Origin: Candidatus Saccharimonadales bacterium
GTDB taxonomy: Bacteria; Patescibacteriota; Saccharimonadia; Saccharimonadales; JBBQAJ01
Assembly: GCA_038316195.1 (NCBI GenBank)
Contig: JBBQAJ010000006.1
Location: 1-33,560, forward strand
DNA length: 33,560 nucleotides
Direction of reading: 5' to 3'
Shown here: piece after piece, positions 2,706-22,439 of the stretch
How positions within the stretch are numbered: the stretch's first letter is position 1
Layout of the letters: each line of letters opens with the position of its first letter
Made by a program: the position numbers and the translations under genes
The notes under the pieces: generated by a model
Told to the model about the DNA's origin: nothing
The model's database searches: none
What the model saw: the letters and a program-made list of their open reading frames with translations, nothing else

Positions 2706-3185
2706 ATGCATCGCCACGGGTACAAAGGTCGTAAATTTAACCGCGAACGCGATCAACGCGAAGCTTTATTGCAGAGCTTGGCAGAAAGTTTGATCATCCA
2801 TGAATCAATAGAAACTACTTTAACTAAAGCTAAAGAAATTGCACCAATAGTTGAAAAACTTATTACCAAATCTAAAATAGGCGATTTACATAACAGACGG
2901 CAAATTATTGCACAGCTGCAAACGGTTGGAACTGCCCACAAATTAATAGACGAGATTGCACCTAAACTGAAAAATCGCAACAGTGGTCATTTACGAATAG
3001 AACGTACTAAATTACGTAGAGGTGATAATGCGCAATTAGCTAGAGTAAGTTTTGTGGATGATCTTAAAGAAGCTCCAGTTTCCAAAAATGCCGAGACTAA
3101 ACTTCAGGCTGTTGATAGTACAAAAGTTAAAAAACCTTCTACAGTAAAAAGCAAATCGATAGTTAAGACGGAGATCAAGAAATGA
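2706..3185 (+). CDS. rplQ: 50S ribosomal protein L17 with Lys-rich C-terminal extension
   Basis: IIHESIETTLTKAKE, RRGDNAQLA motifs. Confidence 0.96.
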   Translation: MHRHGYKGRKFNRERDQREALLQSLAESLIIHESIETTLTKAKEIAPIVEKLITKSKIGDLHNRRQIIAQLQTVGTAHKLIDEIAPKLKNRNSGHLRIERTKLRRGDNAQLARVSFVDDLKEAPVSKNAETKLQAVDSTKVKKPSTVKSKSIVKTEIKK

Positions 3186-3622
3186 AAACTTATTCTGCAA
3201 AACCAACTGACGTAATACGCAAGTGGCACTTAATTGATGCCTCTGAAGCTCCTCTTGGTCGCGTTGCTACTGTTGTTGCAACATTGTTAACCGGCAAGGG
3301 TAAGACGCAGTTTACGCATCATATTGACTGTGGTGATTTTGTTATTATAGTAAACGCTGAAAATCTTGTGGTAACCGGCAACAAGTTAGAAGATAAAAAA
3401 TATTATAAGTACAGTGGATATCCTAGTGGACTTAAAACAACTGCACTTAAAGATTTATTGGCAAAAGATCCTACACAACCTATTTATAAAGCCGTGCGTG
3501 GCATGTTGCCGGTGAATAAATTACGAGCCGAGAGACTAAAAAGACTTAAGATATATTCAGGTGCTCAACATGAACATGATGCACAGAAACCAGAAATATT
3601 ATCAGTGAAAGAGGTTAAATAA
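3182..3622 (+). CDS. rplM: 50S ribosomal protein L13
   Basis: WHLIDA..LGRVA, DCGDFVIIVNA, AVRGMLP; ATGA overlap with rplQ. Confidence 0.98.
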   Translation: MKTYSAKPTDVIRKWHLIDASEAPLGRVATVVATLLTGKGKTQFTHHIDCGDFVIIVNAENLVVTGNKLEDKKYYKYSGYPSGLKTTALKDLLAKDPTQPIYKAVRGMLPVNKLRAERLKRLKIYSGAQHEHDAQKPEILSVKEVK

Positions 3623-4026
3623 TGGCTGAGAATTCAAAACACTACTTTTATGCACTTGGTCGTAGAAAAAGCTCAACAGCAAGAGTCAGGCTTATGAATG
3701 GTAAAGGAACCATAACAATCAATAGTAAACCAGCAAATGAATATTTGTCAGAGAGCAAAACACTACTTCATGAATTAGAAAAACCATTCATAGCACTGGA
3801 AATTCAAAACAAATATGACGTTAGTGCAGTCGTATCTGGGGGAGGACATAGTAGTCAAATAGATGCGATTCGTTTAGGAATAGCAAAAGCTCTAGCAGTT
3901 ATGAACGAAGATCTTAGAAGTACACTTAAAAGAGCTGACTTACTAGGTCGCGACCCAAGAGAAAAAGAGCGCAAGAAATTTGGGCTTAAGGGTGCTCGAA
4001 AACAACGCCAGTTTACTAAACGTTAG
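3622..4026 (+). CDS. rpsI: 30S ribosomal protein S9
   Basis: GRRKSSTARV, GGGHSSQ, RDPREKERKKFGLKGARK..QFTKR. Confidence 0.98.
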   Translation: MAENSKHYFYALGRRKSSTARVRLMNGKGTITINSKPANEYLSESKTLLHELEKPFIALEIQNKYDVSAVVSGGGHSSQIDAIRLGIAKALAVMNEDLRSTLKRADLLGRDPREKERKKFGLKGARKQRQFTKR

Positions 4027-4034
4027 TATAAACT

Positions 4035-4062
4035 TTGACTGTATTGACAATGGTGGTATAAT
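4035..4062 (+). promoter_or_regulatory. Sigma70-type promoter with extended -10 for the aro leader
   Basis: TTGACT 4035-4040, 16-nt spacer, TGgTATAAT 4054-4062; leader ATG 7 nt downstream. Confidence 0.75.
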
Positions 4063-4069
4063 AATTCTT

Positions 4070-4132
4070 ATGTCAACAACTACGCAAAATTGCGCATATT
4101 GGTTTGCTAGCTTTAAAAAGGCGATTGTATAA
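4070..4132 (+). CDS. Putative attenuator leader peptide MSTTTQNCAYWFASFKKAIV (Tyr-Trp-Phe sensing)
   Basis: 20-codon ORF starting at the predicted TSS; tandem TAT-TGG-TTT codons at 4097-4105; overlaps the antiterminator arm GGCGATT 4120-4126. Confidence 0.8.
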   Translation: MSTTTQNCAYWFASFKKAIV

Positions 4133-4156
4133 GTTTAGCATTTAGCAAAACGAAAT

Positions 4157-4181
4157 AAATCGCCAAACAGGCGATTTTTTT
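4157..4181 (+). terminator. Attenuator intrinsic terminator upstream of the DAHP synthase gene
   Basis: AAATCGCC-aaaca-GGCGATTT followed by TTTT; the 5' arm AATCGCC can alternatively pair with 4120-4126. Confidence 0.85.
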
Positions 4182-4197
4182 AATTCAGGAATAATAT

Positions 4198-5463
4198 ATG
4201 TCGATTGAACAATGCATACCATCATCACCAATTTTACAAGAATCATTACGCATAAAAGATGTTCTGTTACCAGCACGCAAAAGAATTGAAGCTGTAAATA
4301 CAATCAATGAAGATCGTGTTCTAAAGAGCATCCGGATTCAATTAGGATACGATTCAGATTTTGCCGATTTGTCTGGACTGATTGATGAAAGAGTTGAAAA
4401 GGTTCCAATGATTACACCTAGAATGGTTGCTGGAGTTCTTCCATTATCAGCTGAGAGTGCAAGAACAACTTTAGAAGCACGAAAAACACTTGCAGACATT
4501 CATAAACATCGTAATTTTAGGTTAGCTGTAGGAATTGGTGAATGTTCTGTTCGTGATCCAGAGATGACGATAGAATATGCAAAAAAAGTTGCAATCTGGC
4601 AAAAACAATTTCCAAATCTTTTTTTGATGCAACGAACATTTTTTGAAAAACCACGCACTCCTAGAAAACTTGGTGATGAAGCACCCTGGAAAGGTTTTAT
4701 GTATGACCCACTTTTAGATGGGTCAAATGACATTAATCTTGGTGTAATTGCAGCAAGAATTATATTATGTACTATTACAAAAATGGGTGTTCCTGCTTTA
4801 AAGGAACAGTTAAATGCACTTACTCCACAGTTTTTAGATGGATTAATTACGCAAGACAATATAGGTGCTAGGAATGTAGGAGACCAGAAATCTATGGAGT
4901 ATGCTTCAGGCACATCAGCGATCGTAGGAGCAAAGAATAATCTTGATGGCGATATTGAGGCAGCAATGCAGGCAGTTGCTTCTGCTCATGGAGAACACGC
5001 TTTTTTGGGAATCGATAATTACGGTAATTTATGTCTAGTGAAAACATTGGGCAATGATACAGCTCATATAATTTTACGTGGAGGCAGCAATGGCCCTAAC
5101 TACGGTAAAGATCACATTCAAGAAGCTCGGGTTTTGGCAGACAAGTATGGTGTCAACTTATCTATAGATATTGATGCTAGCCATGGAAATAGTAACAAAA
5201 TAGCAAAAAATCAAATACAAGTTGCAGAGGACGTTTCAGGGCAAATAGAAGAAGGTGAATTTTCAATAACAGGATTTCAAATGGAAACAAGTTTAGTTGA
5301 AGGATCACAGCCCTTTAAGCTTGGTGAGGCAAAAAACTTAATCTATGGACAAAGTATCACGGATGAAACTCTTGGGATTGCTGATACAGAATATTGTTTG
5401 ACGACACTAAATGAATCAACTGCAAAACGTAGTAAACTAACAATCTCAGATTGGGCAACCTAA
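4198..5463 (+). CDS. 3-deoxy-7-phosphoheptulonate (DAHP) synthase, class I-alpha (AroG/F/H-like), divergent
   Basis: IGECS, FEKPRT, IGAR, GAKN, HIILRGG, DASHGNS, MET, YGQSITD; Cys/His/Glu/Asp metal ligands all present. Confidence 0.9.
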   Translation: MSIEQCIPSSPILQESLRIKDVLLPARKRIEAVNTINEDRVLKSIRIQLGYDSDFADLSGLIDERVEKVPMITPRMVAGVLPLSAESARTTLEARKTLADIHKHRNFRLAVGIGECSVRDPEMTIEYAKKVAIWQKQFPNLFLMQRTFFEKPRTPRKLGDEAPWKGFMYDPLLDGSNDINLGVIAARIILCTITKMGVPALKEQLNALTPQFLDGLITQDNIGARNVGDQKSMEYASGTSAIVGAKNNLDGDIEAAMQAVASAHGEHAFLGIDNYGNLCLVKTLGNDTAHIILRGGSNGPNYGKDHIQEARVLADKYGVNLSIDIDASHGNSNKIAKNQIQVAEDVSGQIEEGEFSITGFQMETSLVEGSQPFKLGEAKNLIYGQSITDETLGIADTEYCLTTLNESTAKRSKLTISDWAT

Positions 5464-6653
5464 TGACAGAGTTAGTTGTTGGTATTCAAGGTGAAAGTGG
5501 TAGTTTTCATGAAGCTGCTGGAAATGAATTCTACACAGATAATGCTGATAGCATTCGCTATGTGCCATTTGCATCGCATGAACTATTACTTCACAATTTA
5601 TTTAACCCTAATAATGAGATTCATGAAGCCGTTATAGCTGTAGATAACAACACTTCTGGTAGAGTTTTAAGTGCAATTAACGCTTTAAGAGAACACCCAG
5701 AAGTTCGTATTATTGGTTCTATTACTTTGAACATAGATCAGCATCTTCTTTTAGCTCCAGGACATGATGAAGCAGGCCTACAAGCTGTTATCTCACAACA
5801 ACCTGCCCTGGACCAGTGCGAAGCTAATATTAAAAATGCAGGCTACAAGGCTATACCATATTACGATACTGCTGCGGCTGCTCGTAGAGTAAGGGATTCA
5901 CGAGGTAGATATCAAGACTTCACTTCTGTTGCTGCAATTGGCTCACGTGTTGCAGGTGATATATTCGGTCTCTCAGTGGGTTCGAAGTTTAACGATATTG
6001 AATATAACGCAACAAAATTTTGGATTTTATCTGATGTTGAAAAAAGTGGTCACGGTAGTCACACGGCATTAACATTTGAAGTTTCAGACCGAGCAGGTTC
6101 ACTGCATCGTGCGATCGGTATATTATCAATGGATTTCGGGTATAATCTTACGGATATTGACAGTCATTTAGCGTCAAAAACAGATCGTAATAGAGCATTT
6201 TTTGCAGAAATTGAGCATGGAGACTCCGATCAGCTAGAGGCTGTAATATCCAAGATGATGGCTGAAGATTTGAACCCACAAGTACTTGGGCAGTACTCAC
6301 CAAAAGGCAGTCCACTAGCTGTTGAAGGTCTGGATCATCATTTACCAGAAGCCCTCAAACATGATGAATGGAGTGGTCGACACGGGTTAAAAAATCCAAA
6401 TGGATCTGCTGTGCTATATGTCGAGACAGATCATACCAGTGGTTCTTTATTTAAAGTACTAGGGAAGCTTGCATCATGTAATCTTGTTGATTTAGGTCGG
6501 CCCACTGTTCCTATAGACCATCAATTTAATAGGGGATTTTACATAGTTATTGATGCAACTACTCAAAGAAATGTCATACAATCAGCGATCGAATCAATCA
6601 GTCAAATGGAAGGTTTTTCGGCAGAAAAAGTAAGTGTTGGAGAGCTAAAGTAA
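5463..6653 (+). CDS. pheA: Prephenate dehydratase (PheA-like) with two ACT-like domains and no chorismate mutase domain
   Basis: QGESGSFHE, QPALDQC, DTAAAA, NATKF (TRF-like); ACT DRAGSL..NLTDIDS and second DHTSGSL..NLVDL; likely start ATG 5463 (TAATG coupling). Confidence 0.8.
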   Translation: MTELVVGIQGESGSFHEAAGNEFYTDNADSIRYVPFASHELLLHNLFNPNNEIHEAVIAVDNNTSGRVLSAINALREHPEVRIIGSITLNIDQHLLLAPGHDEAGLQAVISQQPALDQCEANIKNAGYKAIPYYDTAAAARRVRDSRGRYQDFTSVAAIGSRVAGDIFGLSVGSKFNDIEYNATKFWILSDVEKSGHGSHTALTFEVSDRAGSLHRAIGILSMDFGYNLTDIDSHLASKTDRNRAFFAEIEHGDSDQLEAVISKMMAEDLNPQVLGQYSPKGSPLAVEGLDHHLPEALKHDEWSGRHGLKNPNGSAVLYVETDHTSGSLFKVLGKLASCNLVDLGRPTVPIDHQFNRGFYIVIDATTQRNVIQSAIESISQMEGFSAEKVSVGELK

Positions 6654-7411
6654 TGAGTAAGCAAGAATCAATCGGTATAGTTGGCGCGTATGGTGATTTA
6701 GGGCGACAAATGGCAGTTCAAGCAACTAGCGCGTATTCTGAAGTTTTTCTTTACGACATCCCAAAAGTATCTCCAGTTTCTTCGCTGCAGGGGATAGATT
6801 CTGAACTATCAGCTGAAACATTAAATAATCGTCCACAGATAGCCAACAACCTAGGTGAATTGGTTGAACTTTCTGACATAGTCCACTGGTGTGCTCCTAT
6901 TTCCGGATTAGAGGATTTAGAAAAAATAGATGAAGACACAACATTAATACTACATGATAGTGTTATGCAAAACAGTATTGAGGCAAGTACTGATTTAAAA
7001 CAATGCATAAACGTTTTAGGCACTATTGCGATTGTTCACTGTTTGGTCAATAATCCAAATACCGTCGTAGTTGCATCTGATAGCCTTGGGGCCAATTTAG
7101 CATGGAATCATTTTATAACATTGGGGTTAAGTCCTATTTATAAAACAGTAAAAGAACACGATACTGCAATGGCTCAGAGTCAGGGCGTTTTTGCACTAAA
7201 CATTTTGAGACATTATGCAGATTTGAAACAACTACAGTCTATTGGATTATTAACGCAATCATCGCTGGAATTTCTTCATGCCATGGAAGCGCGTGTTTCT
7301 AGATGGACGCCTGTAACTTTAAAAGCTATTCTAAGTAATCCAGAATTGAATGCTAGCCCACAAGTTACGCTAGTAGAAATTGATGATTTTATTTCTGAAC
7401 ATTATCACTAA
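6653..7411 (+). CDS. Prephenate/arogenate dehydrogenase (TyrA-like), divergent
   Basis: Rossmann IGIVGAYGDLG; KEHDTAMAQSQG matches the TyrA EHDxxMxxxQ motif; TAATG coupling to pheA. Confidence 0.7.
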   Translation: MSKQESIGIVGAYGDLGRQMAVQATSAYSEVFLYDIPKVSPVSSLQGIDSELSAETLNNRPQIANNLGELVELSDIVHWCAPISGLEDLEKIDEDTTLILHDSVMQNSIEASTDLKQCINVLGTIAIVHCLVNNPNTVVVASDSLGANLAWNHFITLGLSPIYKTVKEHDTAMAQSQGVFALNILRHYADLKQLQSIGLLTQSSLEFLHAMEARVSRWTPVTLKAILSNPELNASPQVTLVEIDDFISEHYH

Positions 7412-7494: not shown

Positions 7495-7524
7495 TTGACA
7501 TAGAAATTGACAATGTGATAGTAT
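7495..7524 (+). promoter_or_regulatory. Sigma70-type promoter with extended -10 for the trp leader
   Basis: TTGACA 7495-7500, 18-nt spacer, TGaTAGTAT 7516-7524; leader ATG 7 nt downstream. Confidence 0.7.
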
Positions 7525-7531
7525 TTTAATT

Positions 7532-7621
7532 ATGTCTAAAATATATGGCAATACAATAAACCGATCGATTAGCACGCAAACGACTTGGCAAAACTCTCAT
7601 AACGTACGGGAGTCAATTTAG
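7532..7621 (+). CDS. Putative trp attenuator leader peptide MSKIYGNTINRSISTQTTWQNSHNVRESI
   Basis: 29-codon ORF starting at the predicted TSS; single TGG at 7586-7588; overlaps the antiterminator arm ACGGGAGT 7606-7613. Confidence 0.72.
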   Translation: MSKIYGNTINRSISTQTTWQNSHNVRESI

Positions 7622-7649
7622 TATAATTTAAAATTAAATATCTAAAAGC

Positions 7650-7674
7650 AATACTCCCGTCAGGGAGATTTTTT
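7650..7674 (+). terminator. Attenuator intrinsic terminator upstream of ORF-trpB-trpA
   Basis: AAT(A)CTCCC-gtca-GGGAGATT followed by TTTT; ACTCCCGT 7653-7660 is the perfect complement of 7606-7613. Confidence 0.8.
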
Positions 7675-14280: not shown

Positions 14281-14357
14281 GCCACCTTAGCTCAGTTGGT
14301 TAGAGCGACTGTTTTGTAAACAGTAGGTCGTCGGTTCGAATCCGACAGGTGGCTCCA
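14281..14357 (+). tRNA. tRNA-Thr(TGT)
   Basis: GCCACCT/AGGTGGC acceptor; anticodon arm ACTGT-ttTGTaa-ACAGT; GTTCGAATC; encoded CCA. Confidence 0.97.
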
Positions 14358-14361
14358 TTGC

Positions 14362-14447
14362 GCAGGGTTAGTGAAGCGGTCAAACACAACAGACTGTAAA
14401 TCTGTCGGCTTATGCCTTCGTAGGTTCGAATCCTACACCCTGCACCA
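14362..14447 (+). tRNA. tRNA-Tyr(GTA)
   Basis: GCAGGGT/ACCCTGC acceptor; ACAGA-ctGTAaa-TCTGT; long variable arm; CCA. Confidence 0.97.
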
Positions 14448-15855: not shown

Positions 15856-16936
15856 GAGTAACCGGCAAAATCGTGGAGGTTTTTAGTCCATTTACTCTCT
15901 GTTAATTAGCAATAAGTAATGTCGTAAGACATTACTTATACATGAAACAACGAGGATTTCGCTACTGCCCCACCTGCAGTACAAAGCTACAAAAGCGTGG
16001 ATTAACAGCTGCTGGTACCCAACGTTGGTTGTGTATTGTTTGCAGCAGGAGTGGTACAAAACCACGGCCAGATTTATCTCAAGCTTTGCTCTTGGAACGG
16101 TTTGTCGCCTGGCTACTAGGGAAACAATCCCAAGCAGACTTACCAGGTTCTGAACGCACATGGCGAGCCCAAACGGCTTGGTGTTGGAAGATTGTGCCGC
16201 CACAAATACACAGTGGCGAGATTTATCCGGTAGTAATCATAGACGGCATCCGGATTGGCAGTACAGTCTGCCTCATTGCTCGTACTCCTGAATACGTCAT
16301 TGGTTGGCACTGGGCACCATATGAATCCAGTGGCACCTGGTCTGAGCTGTTTGACCAGTACCCAGCTCCTAGCTTTGTGGTCTGTGATGGCCAGAAAGGT
16401 ATCTTACTGGGACTTAAGCGATCGTGGCCAACAACGGCAATACAGCGCTGCCATTTCCATGTCTGGCAGAATGTCCGAAGTAAGCTAACTCTGCATCCCC
16501 AAACTGAAGCTGGACAAGATCTCCTACGTCTGACCAGAGGCTTGTGGCAAGTCTACGGTCCAGAGCATATGACAGCTTGGCGGACTGGTTTCAGACTTTG
16601 GGAAGAAATATACTGTGACTTTGTAAAACAACGCACCTATCACCAAGAGCCAACAGCTGGCAGACGACGCTGGTGGTATACCCATGGACGGCTCAGAAGT
16701 GCCTACAACCAACTCAGGAAGTTGCAGGAGGATAACCAATTATTTACGTTCATTCATAACCCAAGAGTACCGATACCTAGAAACACCAATCACATGGAAG
16801 GAGGTATTAACTCCCAGCTCAGAACCAAGCTCAAACTACATCGAGGTATGAACGAAGAGCACCAAAGACGACTGGTTGAATGGTATCTTTACAGTCGAAC
16901 CGAAGACCCAAAACCTCCACGAAATTGCCTATAACC
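15856..16936 (+). mobile_element. IS256-family (IS1249-like) insertion sequence, ~1.08 kb
   Basis: Inverted repeats 15864-15888 and 16905-16929 (21/25 match); direct repeat TTCTTTTCC at 15847-15855 and 16937-16945; visibly higher GC than flanks. Confidence 0.9.
15942..16934 (+). CDS. IS1249-like DDE transposase
   Basis: N-terminal CPTC...GTQRWLCIVC Zn ribbon; IIDG, VVCDGQKG, IQRCHFH, NTNHMEGGINSQL. Confidence 0.93.
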   Translation: MKQRGFRYCPTCSTKLQKRGLTAAGTQRWLCIVCSRSGTKPRPDLSQALLLERFVAWLLGKQSQADLPGSERTWRAQTAWCWKIVPPQIHSGEIYPVVIIDGIRIGSTVCLIARTPEYVIGWHWAPYESSGTWSELFDQYPAPSFVVCDGQKGILLGLKRSWPTTAIQRCHFHVWQNVRSKLTLHPQTEAGQDLLRLTRGLWQVYGPEHMTAWRTGFRLWEEIYCDFVKQRTYHQEPTAGRRRWWYTHGRLRSAYNQLRKLQEDNQLFTFIHNPRVPIPRNTNHMEGGINSQLRTKLKLHRGMNEEHQRRLVEWYLYSRTEDPKPPRNCL

Positions 16937-17330: not shown

Positions 17331-17405
17331 GCCGTCGTAGCTCAGTGGTAGAGCATCGCCATGGTAAGGCGGGGGTCTCGAGTTCAAATCTCGACGACGG
17401 CTCCA
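17331..17405 (+). tRNA. tRNA-Thr(GGT)
   Basis: GCCGTCG/CGACGGC acceptor; TCGCC-atGGTaa-GGCGG; GTTCAAATC; CCA. Confidence 0.95.
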
Positions 17406-22363: not shown

Positions 22364-22439
22364 AGGGGTATAGCTCAGTTGGTAGAGCACCGGTCTCCAA
22401 AACCGGGTGTCGTAGGTTCGAGTCCTGCTACCCCTGCCA
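22364..22439 (+). tRNA. tRNA-Trp(CCA)
   Basis: AGGGGTA/TACCCCT acceptor; CCGGT-ctCCAaa-ACCGG; GTTCGAGTC; CCA. Confidence 0.97.

Follow-up and report, generated by a model that had tools for sequence, protein, structure and literature searches.

A candidate leader-peptide attenuator upstream of DAHP synthase in Saccharimonadales and its conservation among relatives

Introduction

A spacer of 171 nucleotides (nt) separates rpsI from the gene for 3-deoxy-7-phosphoheptulonate (DAHP) synthase in the genome of a Candidatus Saccharimonadales bacterium, and it holds a promoter-like site, a short open reading frame (ORF), and a hairpin that runs into a series of T residues. Does this hairpin simply end the transcript of the ribosomal protein genes, or does it decide whether the gene behind it is transcribed? 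The spacer is part of a stretch of 33,560 nt (contig JBBQAJ010000006.1 of assembly GCA_038316195.1, forward strand), which is called the window below. The window is contig C20 of a genome, G000, that comprises 888 kb in 24 contigs, is 98.87% complete, and has a G+C content of 38%. Related genomes with which it was compared are denoted by G001, G002, G003, and similar handles.

Leader-peptide attenuation is a textbook form of gene control, in which the ribosome serves as the sensor and a leader ORF carries codons for the cognate amino acid. Judging from the sequence comparisons described here, a ribosome-mediated transcription attenuator of this kind is very probably at work before the DAHP synthase gene, and the probability of this reading is placed at roughly 85%. 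The strength of the case derives from the relatives, because the statistics obtained from the single sequence are modest.

Organization of the leader

The proposed leader is only about 112 nt long, and all of its features lie on the + strand. Its promoter consists of a -35-like hexamer, TTGACT (4035-4040), located 16 nt upstream of the -10 box, and an extended -10 element of the form TGg plus TATAAT (4054-4062). Positions 4035-4062 give the best sigma-70-like match in 14 kb (11 of 12 positions, plus the TG), and -35-like hexamers at 16-18 nt can be made out by eye in the alignment of most relatives. Seven nt (4063-4069) lie between the -10 box and the ATG at 4070, which opens a leader ORF of 20 codons plus TAA (4070-4132), whose translation probably starts on a message that is leaderless or nearly so. 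The proposed sensing codons are the adjacent Tyr TAT (4097-4099), Trp TGG (4100-4102), and Phe TTT (4103-4105), and a second Phe codon, also TTT, is located at 4112-4114. A first-pass annotation of the window had reported the extended -10 element, the 7-nt gap before the ATG, and a 20-amino-acid ORF with tandem Tyr-Trp-Phe and a second Phe, and each of these is present where it was placed.

The last codons of the ORF contain GGCGATT (4120-4126), the putative 5' strand of an antiterminator, which is identical to the 3' arm of the terminator. The partner common to both is the terminator 5' arm, AAATCGCC (4157-4164). A loop (4165-4169) leads from there to the 3' arm, GGCGATTT (4170-4177), which runs into a seven-T run (4175-4181). 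This intrinsic terminator (4157-4181) was the top terminator-like site of the scan. A Shine-Dalgarno-like motif of the DAHP synthase gene (AGGA, 4187-4190) is found between the T-run and the start of the gene at 4198. The hairpin (4157-4177) is terminator-like on both strands and could also end read-through from rplM-rpsI.

These features suggest the following sequence of events. Transcription would start at or a few nt from the A of the ATG at 4070, and the leader ORF would be translated without a Shine-Dalgarno site. When charged aromatic tRNAs are plentiful, the ribosome would reach the stop codon at 4130 and would cover GGCGATT (4120-4126). The hairpin AAATCGCC/GGCGATTT with its U-run would then form, and transcription would end before the DAHP synthase gene. 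A ribosome stalled on the Tyr-Trp-(Phe) codons (4097-4105) would leave GGCGATT, about 19 nt downstream, free to pair with AATCGCC before the 3' arm has been made. With the terminator blocked, the genes for DAHP synthase, a prephenate dehydratase, and a 252-amino-acid protein would be transcribed. The start of transcription, termination itself, a response to starvation, and the relevance of each of the three amino acids are inferred from this arrangement.

Conservation at DAHP synthase loci

DAHP synthase is encoded in 19 of 401 genomes sampled across the order, and in five of 41 close relatives if one weak match (G035) is included in the tally. One of the 19 loci begins at a contig end, which leaves 18 with upstream sequence. 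A leader plus terminator precedes the gene at 16 of these 18 loci, and the core of its ORF is an aromatic residue followed by Trp and Phe; the loci of G199 and G180 have no leader. For 14 of the leaders, the ORF filter called for at least three aromatic residues and did not require Trp, and the other two were found by a filter requiring Trp beside an aromatic residue. Most leaders (14 of 16) stand directly before the DAHP synthase gene, and in the two other cases a 107-amino-acid ORF (G297) or a dehydratase gene (G183) lies between.

Exactly one Trp codon is present in every one of the 16 leaders, along with at least one Tyr and at least one Phe codon. Aromatic residues make up 90 of the 379 residues encoded, compared with 8.2% in the long ORFs of G000. 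The terminator is likewise present in all 16, and its T-run begins 39-49 nt past the leader stop codon in 15 of them and about 62 nt past it in G375. A loose filter that looks for a short aromatic ORF with a T-run behind it has little specificity in the AT-rich G000, giving 94 hits in the 1.78 Mb of both strands. This rate amounts to about 0.02 per 400 nt, and the frequency of 16 out of 18 is therefore far above chance. The aromatic codons, the ORF, and the terminator singled out by the first-pass annotation thus recur at those 16 loci. Furthermore, rpsI is found upstream of only five of the 16 leaders, which argues that the hairpin belongs to the leader and not to rpsI.

The relatives also bear on how translation of the leader would begin. 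A -10-like hexamer is located 6-13 nt before the leader start codon in all 16 cases, and exactly 7 nt before it in nine. The start codons are ATG in 14 leaders and GTG in two. A Shine-Dalgarno-like motif precedes none of the 16 leader ORFs, compared with 13 of the 16 genes that follow the terminator. Both the spacing and the missing motif support a leaderless or nearly leaderless message, and on this pattern the leader is probably translated in that way.

Co-variation of the pairing segments

In the G000 leader, the pairing between the in-ORF segment and the terminator 5' arm comprises 7 bp at -11.5 kcal/mol, and only 1 of 500 shuffled sequences equals it (p = 0.002). An antiterminator of 5-12 bp is predicted in all 16 leaders, with p <= 0.05 against 500 shuffles in 14 of them. 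The in-ORF segment starts 15-30 nt past the first base of the Trp codon, and at +19 in seven of the 16.

The sequences of the paired segments differ among loci in a coordinated manner. At least six types of terminator arm occur (ACCGCC, which is the commonest, AATCGCC in G000, GCCGCC, GTCCGC, GCTCGG, and GTTCGC), each with a matching in-ORF segment. If terminators are swapped among the loci, the mean pairing energy changes from the native value of -13.63 to -11.19 +/- 0.49 kcal/mol, and none of 5000 permutations reaches the native value. The clearest single case of co-variation is the comparison of G000 with its congener G001, whose rpsI is 92% identical and which has a homologous leader without DAHP synthase. 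The in-ORF segment, the terminator 5' arm, and the terminator 3' arm read GGCGATT/AATCGCC/GGCGATT in G000 and GGCGGTT/AACCGCC/GGCGGTT in G001, with the same base changed in all three. Also, GGCGGT is read in two frames among the leaders, as Gly-Gly or as Ala-Val, and selection therefore appears to act on the RNA. The pairing of GGCGATT (4120-4126) with AATCGCC (4158-4164), which the first-pass annotation had proposed from one sequence, is thus borne out by its relatives. RNAalifold, applied to an alignment made with MAFFT, recovers only the terminator, in which two of seven pairs show compensatory changes.

A second congener without DAHP synthase, G003, carries a decayed version of the leader (L224:1906-2075). 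Its start codon has become TTG and its Trp codon a TAG stop; the terminator arms have disappeared, and the -10 box is weaker. The gene trpS lies at +286, directly after this remnant.

Predicted folds

The G000 leader was folded with the nucleotides under a ribosome masked, on the assumption that the ribosome covers -15 to +14 nt relative to the first base of the A-site codon. With the A-site at the Tyr or the Trp codon, the minimum-energy fold is the antiterminator (-15.6 kcal/mol), even when the full leader is available. At the first Phe codon there is a tie between the terminator (-15.8 kcal/mol) and the antiterminator (-15.6 kcal/mol). An A-site placed on either the second Phe codon or the stop codon hides GGCGATT and leaves the terminator to form, and stalling at the second Phe codon would accordingly favor termination. 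The expectation that a stalled ribosome leaves 4120-4126 free thus agrees with the folds for Tyr and Trp, comes to a tie for the first Phe, and fails for the second, and the companion claim that a ribosome at the stop codon covers the segment and lets the terminator form agrees with them throughout. Overall, the computed folds place the antiterminator strand where the mechanism requires it, covered by a ribosome that finishes the ORF and free when one is stalled at the sensing codons.

In the absence of a ribosome, the complete leader folds into the terminator plus a hairpin between 4103-4109 and 4143-4149. This second pairing, TTTGCTA with TAGCAAA, had been suggested as a pause or anti-antiterminator structure. 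It does form in the minimum-energy fold, and it has no conserved counterpart. The family therefore looks like a three-segment design that lacks an E. coli-style 1:2 hairpin. Attenuation does not depend on such an upstream hairpin, which is a feature of the E. coli type.

Points against attenuation

Several results weigh against an attenuator, or against the form of it proposed here. Some concern the RNA of the window itself. Two DNA runs from a single study are listed as containing this stretch, and no RNA run is. The fold energy of the leader is ordinary (z = -1.47, with 13 of 200 shuffles as good), and fold z-scores are non-significant for both attenuator-like leaders of the window. If the 3' arm has not yet been made and no ribosome is present, the G000 leader folds into the antiterminator, which makes the outcome without translation ambiguous. 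A significant upstream partner of the antiterminator strand (p <= 0.05) is found in none of the 16 leaders.

Other results concern the comparisons. In G002, the nearest relative with DAHP synthase, the antiterminator has only 5 bp (p = 0.078), and the value for G076 is p = 0.064. The loci are kin, so the permutation tests overstate their independence. In the MAFFT alignment, in which six to seven rows are out of register, antiterminator cells are 71.4% paired compared with 28.6-61.4% for slid partners, and four antiterminator pairs are changed on both sides, a number reached by 39 of 500 shuffles.

The remaining points concern biology. Each amino acid is represented by one or two codons in the leader, whereas classical attenuators use runs. 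The same aromatic-Trp-Phe leader is found before trpS operons in genomes without DAHP synthase. Finally, most of the pathway fed by DAHP synthase was not found in G000 by family searches.

Alternative explanations

Among the alternatives to be weighed, the one that fares best accepts a real attenuator and makes it essentially a Trp sensor; the neighboring Tyr and Phe codons would be retained for the context of the RNA or peptide or would contribute little, and there would be no three-input gate. The invariant single Trp codon at a fairly fixed distance from the antiterminator strand speaks for this explanation, as does the occurrence of the leader type before trpS operons, where trpS lies within 3 kb in 21 of 23 listed loci and the leader is intact in G001 and G004. 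The masked folds also fit, given that a stall at the first Phe codon yields only a tie and a stall at the second yields the terminator. Against it stand the Tyr and Phe codons in all 16 leaders, since Tyr was not demanded by the search filter, and the masked ribosome at the Tyr codon, which gives the antiterminator. Furthermore, the leader before trpBA-trpS in G000 and G002 has no aromatic neighbor of Trp, whereas all three aromatic codons are grouped in the DAHP synthase leader, and the scan pattern for trpS-linked leaders required TGGTTT and was blind to Trp-only leaders. Restriction of the sensor to Trp is regarded as rather unlikely. Trp is the surest input of the attenuator, and its codon is the most constant. 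Separate Tyr and Phe inputs are plausible, with a probability somewhat below even; the presence of the leader before trpS in genomes without DAHP synthase means that these codons may not be separate inputs. The three-input OR gate envisaged by the first-pass annotation can only be inferred.

Control could also reside at the promoter, with a DNA-binding protein recognizing ATTGACA together with an inverted TGTCAA at the start of the ORF, and with the terminator of minor importance. ATTGACA is located in the promoter spacer (4043-4049, + strand), where its TTGACA ends exactly 7 nt before the -10 box, and a second -35-like box or an operator are the candidates for its function. It occupies the same place in G000, G001, G002, G007, G256, and the second promoter of the window, and TTGACA and TGTCAA flank the -10 box in G000 and G007. 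However, G000 has 19 sites at which TTGACA precedes a -10-like hexamer by exactly 7 nt, a pattern that looks more like a general promoter style than a specific operator. ATTGACA is absent from most of the 16 leaders, and no candidate regulator was found. Such a protein would only add a layer of control and would leave the co-varying RNA segments unexplained. We regard this explanation as very unlikely.

Two further possibilities are extremely improbable. If the short ORF encoded a functional small hydrophobic peptide, or if the region from 4070 to about 4181 were a trans-acting small RNA and not an attenuator in cis, the conserved core of aromatic-Trp-Phe, often followed by Thr or Ser, would be accounted for, and attenuator leaders with trans functions do exist, such as peTrpL and rnTrpL of Sinorhizobium according to excerpts of the literature; the peptides diverge outside the aromatic core, though, the conserved GGCGGT is read in two frames, the leader is in every case followed directly, on its own strand, by aromatic-pathway or trpS genes, and a trans role could add to the cis role and not replace it. 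Similarly, a plain rplM-rpsI terminator, accompanied by chance in an AT-rich spacer by a promoter-like site and a short ORF, would fit a hairpin that lies 131 nt after rpsI and is terminator-like on both strands, the ordinary fold energy, and the 94 loose hits in G000, but it is strongly disfavored by the promoter between rpsI and the hairpin, by the leader with hairpin before DAHP synthase at 16 of 18 loci (11 without rpsI upstream), and by the co-variation of the in-ORF segment with the hairpin arm. The first-pass annotation had favored a ribosome-stalling attenuator over a mere rpsI terminator, a preference that sequence comparison supports as far as it goes.

Pathway context

The genes around the leader had been described as an aromatic operon, which is an overstatement. 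Family searches of G000 found no chorismate synthase, dehydroquinate synthase, anthranilate synthase, or CM_2 chorismate mutase, and the same searches of 14 control genomes matched chorismate synthase in 14, anthranilate synthase in 14, CM_2 in 13, and dehydroquinate synthase in 11. G000 has a single match to the EPSP synthase family, which we assume may be MurA, a member of the same family, and its match to IGPS is weak and partial. Given that chorismate synthase was not found, the DAHP synthase looks orphaned. Together with the dehydratase and TrpBA, it looks from the gene content like one of several pathway fragments.

Among five other genomes with DAHP synthase that were checked, chorismate synthase is present in G257 and was not found in G002, G229, G244 (a single contig), or G256. 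Tight regulation of a DAHP synthase in genomes where chorismate synthase was not detected would bear on exchange with hosts.

Related leaders in the window and elsewhere

The window contains a second attenuator-like leader (7495-7674) before a 75-amino-acid ORF, trpB, trpA, and trpS. Its -10 box, TAGTAT (7519-7524), ends 7 nt before the ATG at 7532, which begins an ORF of 29 codons (P0002, 7532-7621). Its only Trp codon (7586-7588) has no aromatic neighbor, and its single Tyr codon lies at a distance. Within it, ACGGGAGT (7606-7613) can form a perfect 8-bp pairing with ACTCCCGT (7653-7660) of the terminator, which spans 7654-7667 and is followed by a T-run. The leader is conserved in G002 (L222, about 850-1010), where it has two Trp codons. 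A Trp-only core before trp genes and a Tyr-Trp-Phe core before DAHP synthase fit a choice of codons matched to the operon.

A strict scan of G000 recovered the DAHP synthase leader and four other candidates, and it missed the second leader because an A precedes its T-run. The four other sites (C7:45917-46022, C8:4945-5106, C14:10570-10662, and C24:22211-22322) each lie immediately ahead of a gene and have a short ORF and a terminator, with a possible antiterminator as well, and their codons have no obvious amino acid theme.

A wider scan used a pattern derived from the commonest leader type against one genome per prokaryotic species, and 80 loci were listed. The pattern required TGGTTT and GGCGGT, and its loci are therefore uninformative with regard to co-variation or Trp-only leaders. 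Among the 80 matches listed, at least 31 are titled Candidatus Saccharibacteria, Saccharimonadales, or Microsaccharimonas, and leaders identical to those of G346, G229, and G076 recur in three of these named records, which assigns the order of the window to Saccharibacteria. Fifty listed loci passed the ORF filter, and the first large downstream gene encodes DAHP synthase in 14 (two of them weak), trpS in nine, and a dehydratase in four. In the 21 of 23 listed loci examined that have trpS within 3 kb downstream, it often follows an ORF of 63-105 amino acids. The genes rplM-rpsI are directly upstream in 23 of 49 listed candidates. This leader type is also seen between rpsI and a trpS operon in many Saccharibacteria without DAHP synthase (L023-L099; L223, L225).

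The region behind rpsI was inspected in five genomes that lack DAHP synthase, and two of them, G001 and G004, have an intact leader there, the latter with a prephenate dehydratase gene between the leader and trpS. In G183, G055, and G256, the gene order is leader, (dehydratase,) DAHP synthase, trpS. An arrangement of rpsI, leader, and trpS is likely to be ancestral, and the aromatic genes would have been inserted later.

Aromatic leaders before DAHP synthase are not confined to Saccharibacteria. Among the matches listed, they are found in at least six Massilia records, one Limnohabitans record, and one Burkholderiales record (L039, L052, L061, L073, L076, L079, L087, and L091 are the non-Saccharibacterial ones). 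In metagenome data, 18 of 73 DAHP synthase loci with enough upstream sequence, mostly of high G+C content, pass the leader filter, and about 14 of the 18 are convincing by eye (examples are L156, L162, L170, L176, L194, and L219). The alignment search of the metagenomes yielded mostly distant loci (36-48% identity), and a metagenome search with a single protein query gave no matches. Such leaders outside Saccharibacteria may form a widespread class that has yet to be described, from which the Saccharibacterial gene and its leader could derive.

Relation to known attenuators

Neither the mechanism nor a leader with mixed aromatic codons is new, given that the former is in textbooks and the latter is known from Corynebacterium glutamicum. 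The comparisons below that carry citations follow excerpts of the cited articles and are limited to what those excerpts state. In C. glutamicum, a leader termed aroR with a Phe-Tyr-Phe motif precedes aroF, and this finding is attributed to Neshat et al. 2014 (in PMC11802643); the aroF leader is also named in PMC4046766 and PMC7356990. The operon responds to limitation for Phe, and the availability of Tyr is described as without effect (PMC11802643). This is the closest functional precedent, being a mixed aromatic leader before a DAHP synthase gene in which stalling raises transcription, and the likeness is functional only. The leader in the window differs in having Trp as an invariant single codon, in belonging to another phylum, and in lying in a genome where the rest of the shikimate pathway was not found.

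The leader resembles trpL and pheL of E. coli in that its ORF contains codons for the cognate amino acids, the ribosome would act as the sensor, and an antiterminator and an intrinsic terminator are predicted as rival structures. It differs in that there is no Shine-Dalgarno site, single codons take the place of runs, and no conserved 1:2 hairpin was found. The Rfam models for these leaders were tried and rejected: Trp_leader (RF00513) scores 21.6 bits against a gathering threshold of 41, and Phe_leader (RF01859) scores 19.6 bits against 55, and both scores come mostly from the terminator. A T-box or other riboswitch was rejected as well, as the only Rfam matches at gathering level in the window are four tRNAs.

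Precedents for single traits are found in other lineages. In Actinobacteria, an ilvBNC leader is made without a ribosome-binding site (Morbach et al. 2000, as referenced in PMC4046766), and mycobacteria have leaderless polycysteine short ORFs (bioRxiv 10.1101/834739). These ORFs resemble the one studied here in lying at or near the 5' end, which is predicted in our case, and in having no Shine-Dalgarno site, and they differ in their amino acids and phylum. The E. coli pheST operon is an example of an aminoacyl-tRNA synthetase operon under leader-peptide attenuation (PMC11802643). It parallels the sibling Saccharibacterial leaders before trpS operons, with Phe in place of Trp; in the window itself, trpS follows the second, Trp-only leader. 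An attenuator has been predicted in Vibrio for aroAI-alpha_Y > tyrA (PMC1173090), and a screen of Shewanella lists aroF with an "attenuator sensing tyr-tRNA" (PMC2659441). Both place DAHP synthase under attenuation, and both are predictions or older genetic inferences from other lineages.

A literature search, which had subscription journals and supplements outside its scope, found no report of leader-peptide attenuation for Saccharibacteria, Patescibacteria, or the candidate phyla radiation. As far as this search shows, a conserved family of such switches in Saccharibacteria is new. The family would imply that in these ultra-small epibionts transcription and translation are coupled and that ribosomes can initiate without a Shine-Dalgarno site. 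It would also supply a regulatory part that responds to amino acids, in a lineage opened to genetic manipulation only recently. A bolder interpretation, which we consider unlikely, is that leaderless aromatic-codon attenuators at rpsI-trpS are a lineage-wide trait, that in a minority of genomes the attenuator captured DAHP synthase with or without the dehydratase even though the remaining shikimate steps are lacking, and that the outcome is a regulated aromatic pathway split with the host. If true, an epibiont would use the charging of its own aromatic tRNAs as a cue for inducing enzymes that make or consume a compound passed between it and a host bacterium.

Neighboring features

The gene upstream of rpsI (3622-4026) is rplM (3182-3622). 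The DAHP synthase (4198-5463, + strand) is a type I-alpha enzyme of 421 amino acids that matches Pfam PF00793 and NCBIfam TIGR00034 aroFGH, the latter with 275.9 bits compared with a cutoff of 173.2, and it has about 65 additional N-terminal residues. The next gene overlaps the end of the DAHP synthase gene and encodes a prephenate dehydratase family protein of 400 amino acids (5451-6653, + strand; Pfam PF00800, below the NCBIfam equivalog cutoffs). The third gene of the presumed operon (6653-7411, + strand) encodes the 252-amino-acid protein. Family searches gave no match for this protein or the 75-amino-acid ORF, and none for the first 68 residues of DAHP synthase or the last 116 of the dehydratase. 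In G006, which has no DAHP synthase, a homologue of the 252-amino-acid protein with 34% identity is encoded immediately between rpsI and trpS; the protein goes with the locus and not with the aromatic genes.

TTGACA and its inverse, TGTCAA, flank the -10 box and the start codon at 4044-4076, and the same is seen in G007. At least five of the 19 G000 sites with TTGACA 7 nt before the -10-like hexamer share the form TTGACA-N4-TGG-TATAAT or TACAAT, a spacing that is odd for a -35 box. Promoter sites of the TTGACA-N7 type are located at 4044-4062 and 7507-7524 in the window and at C7:40615, C7:87053, C10:148116, and C14:5653 elsewhere in G000.

The four tRNA genes of the window are at 14281-14444, 17331-17402, and 22364-22436. 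An ORF resembling a Mutator-family transposase, with weak Pfam matches, is located at 15942-16934.

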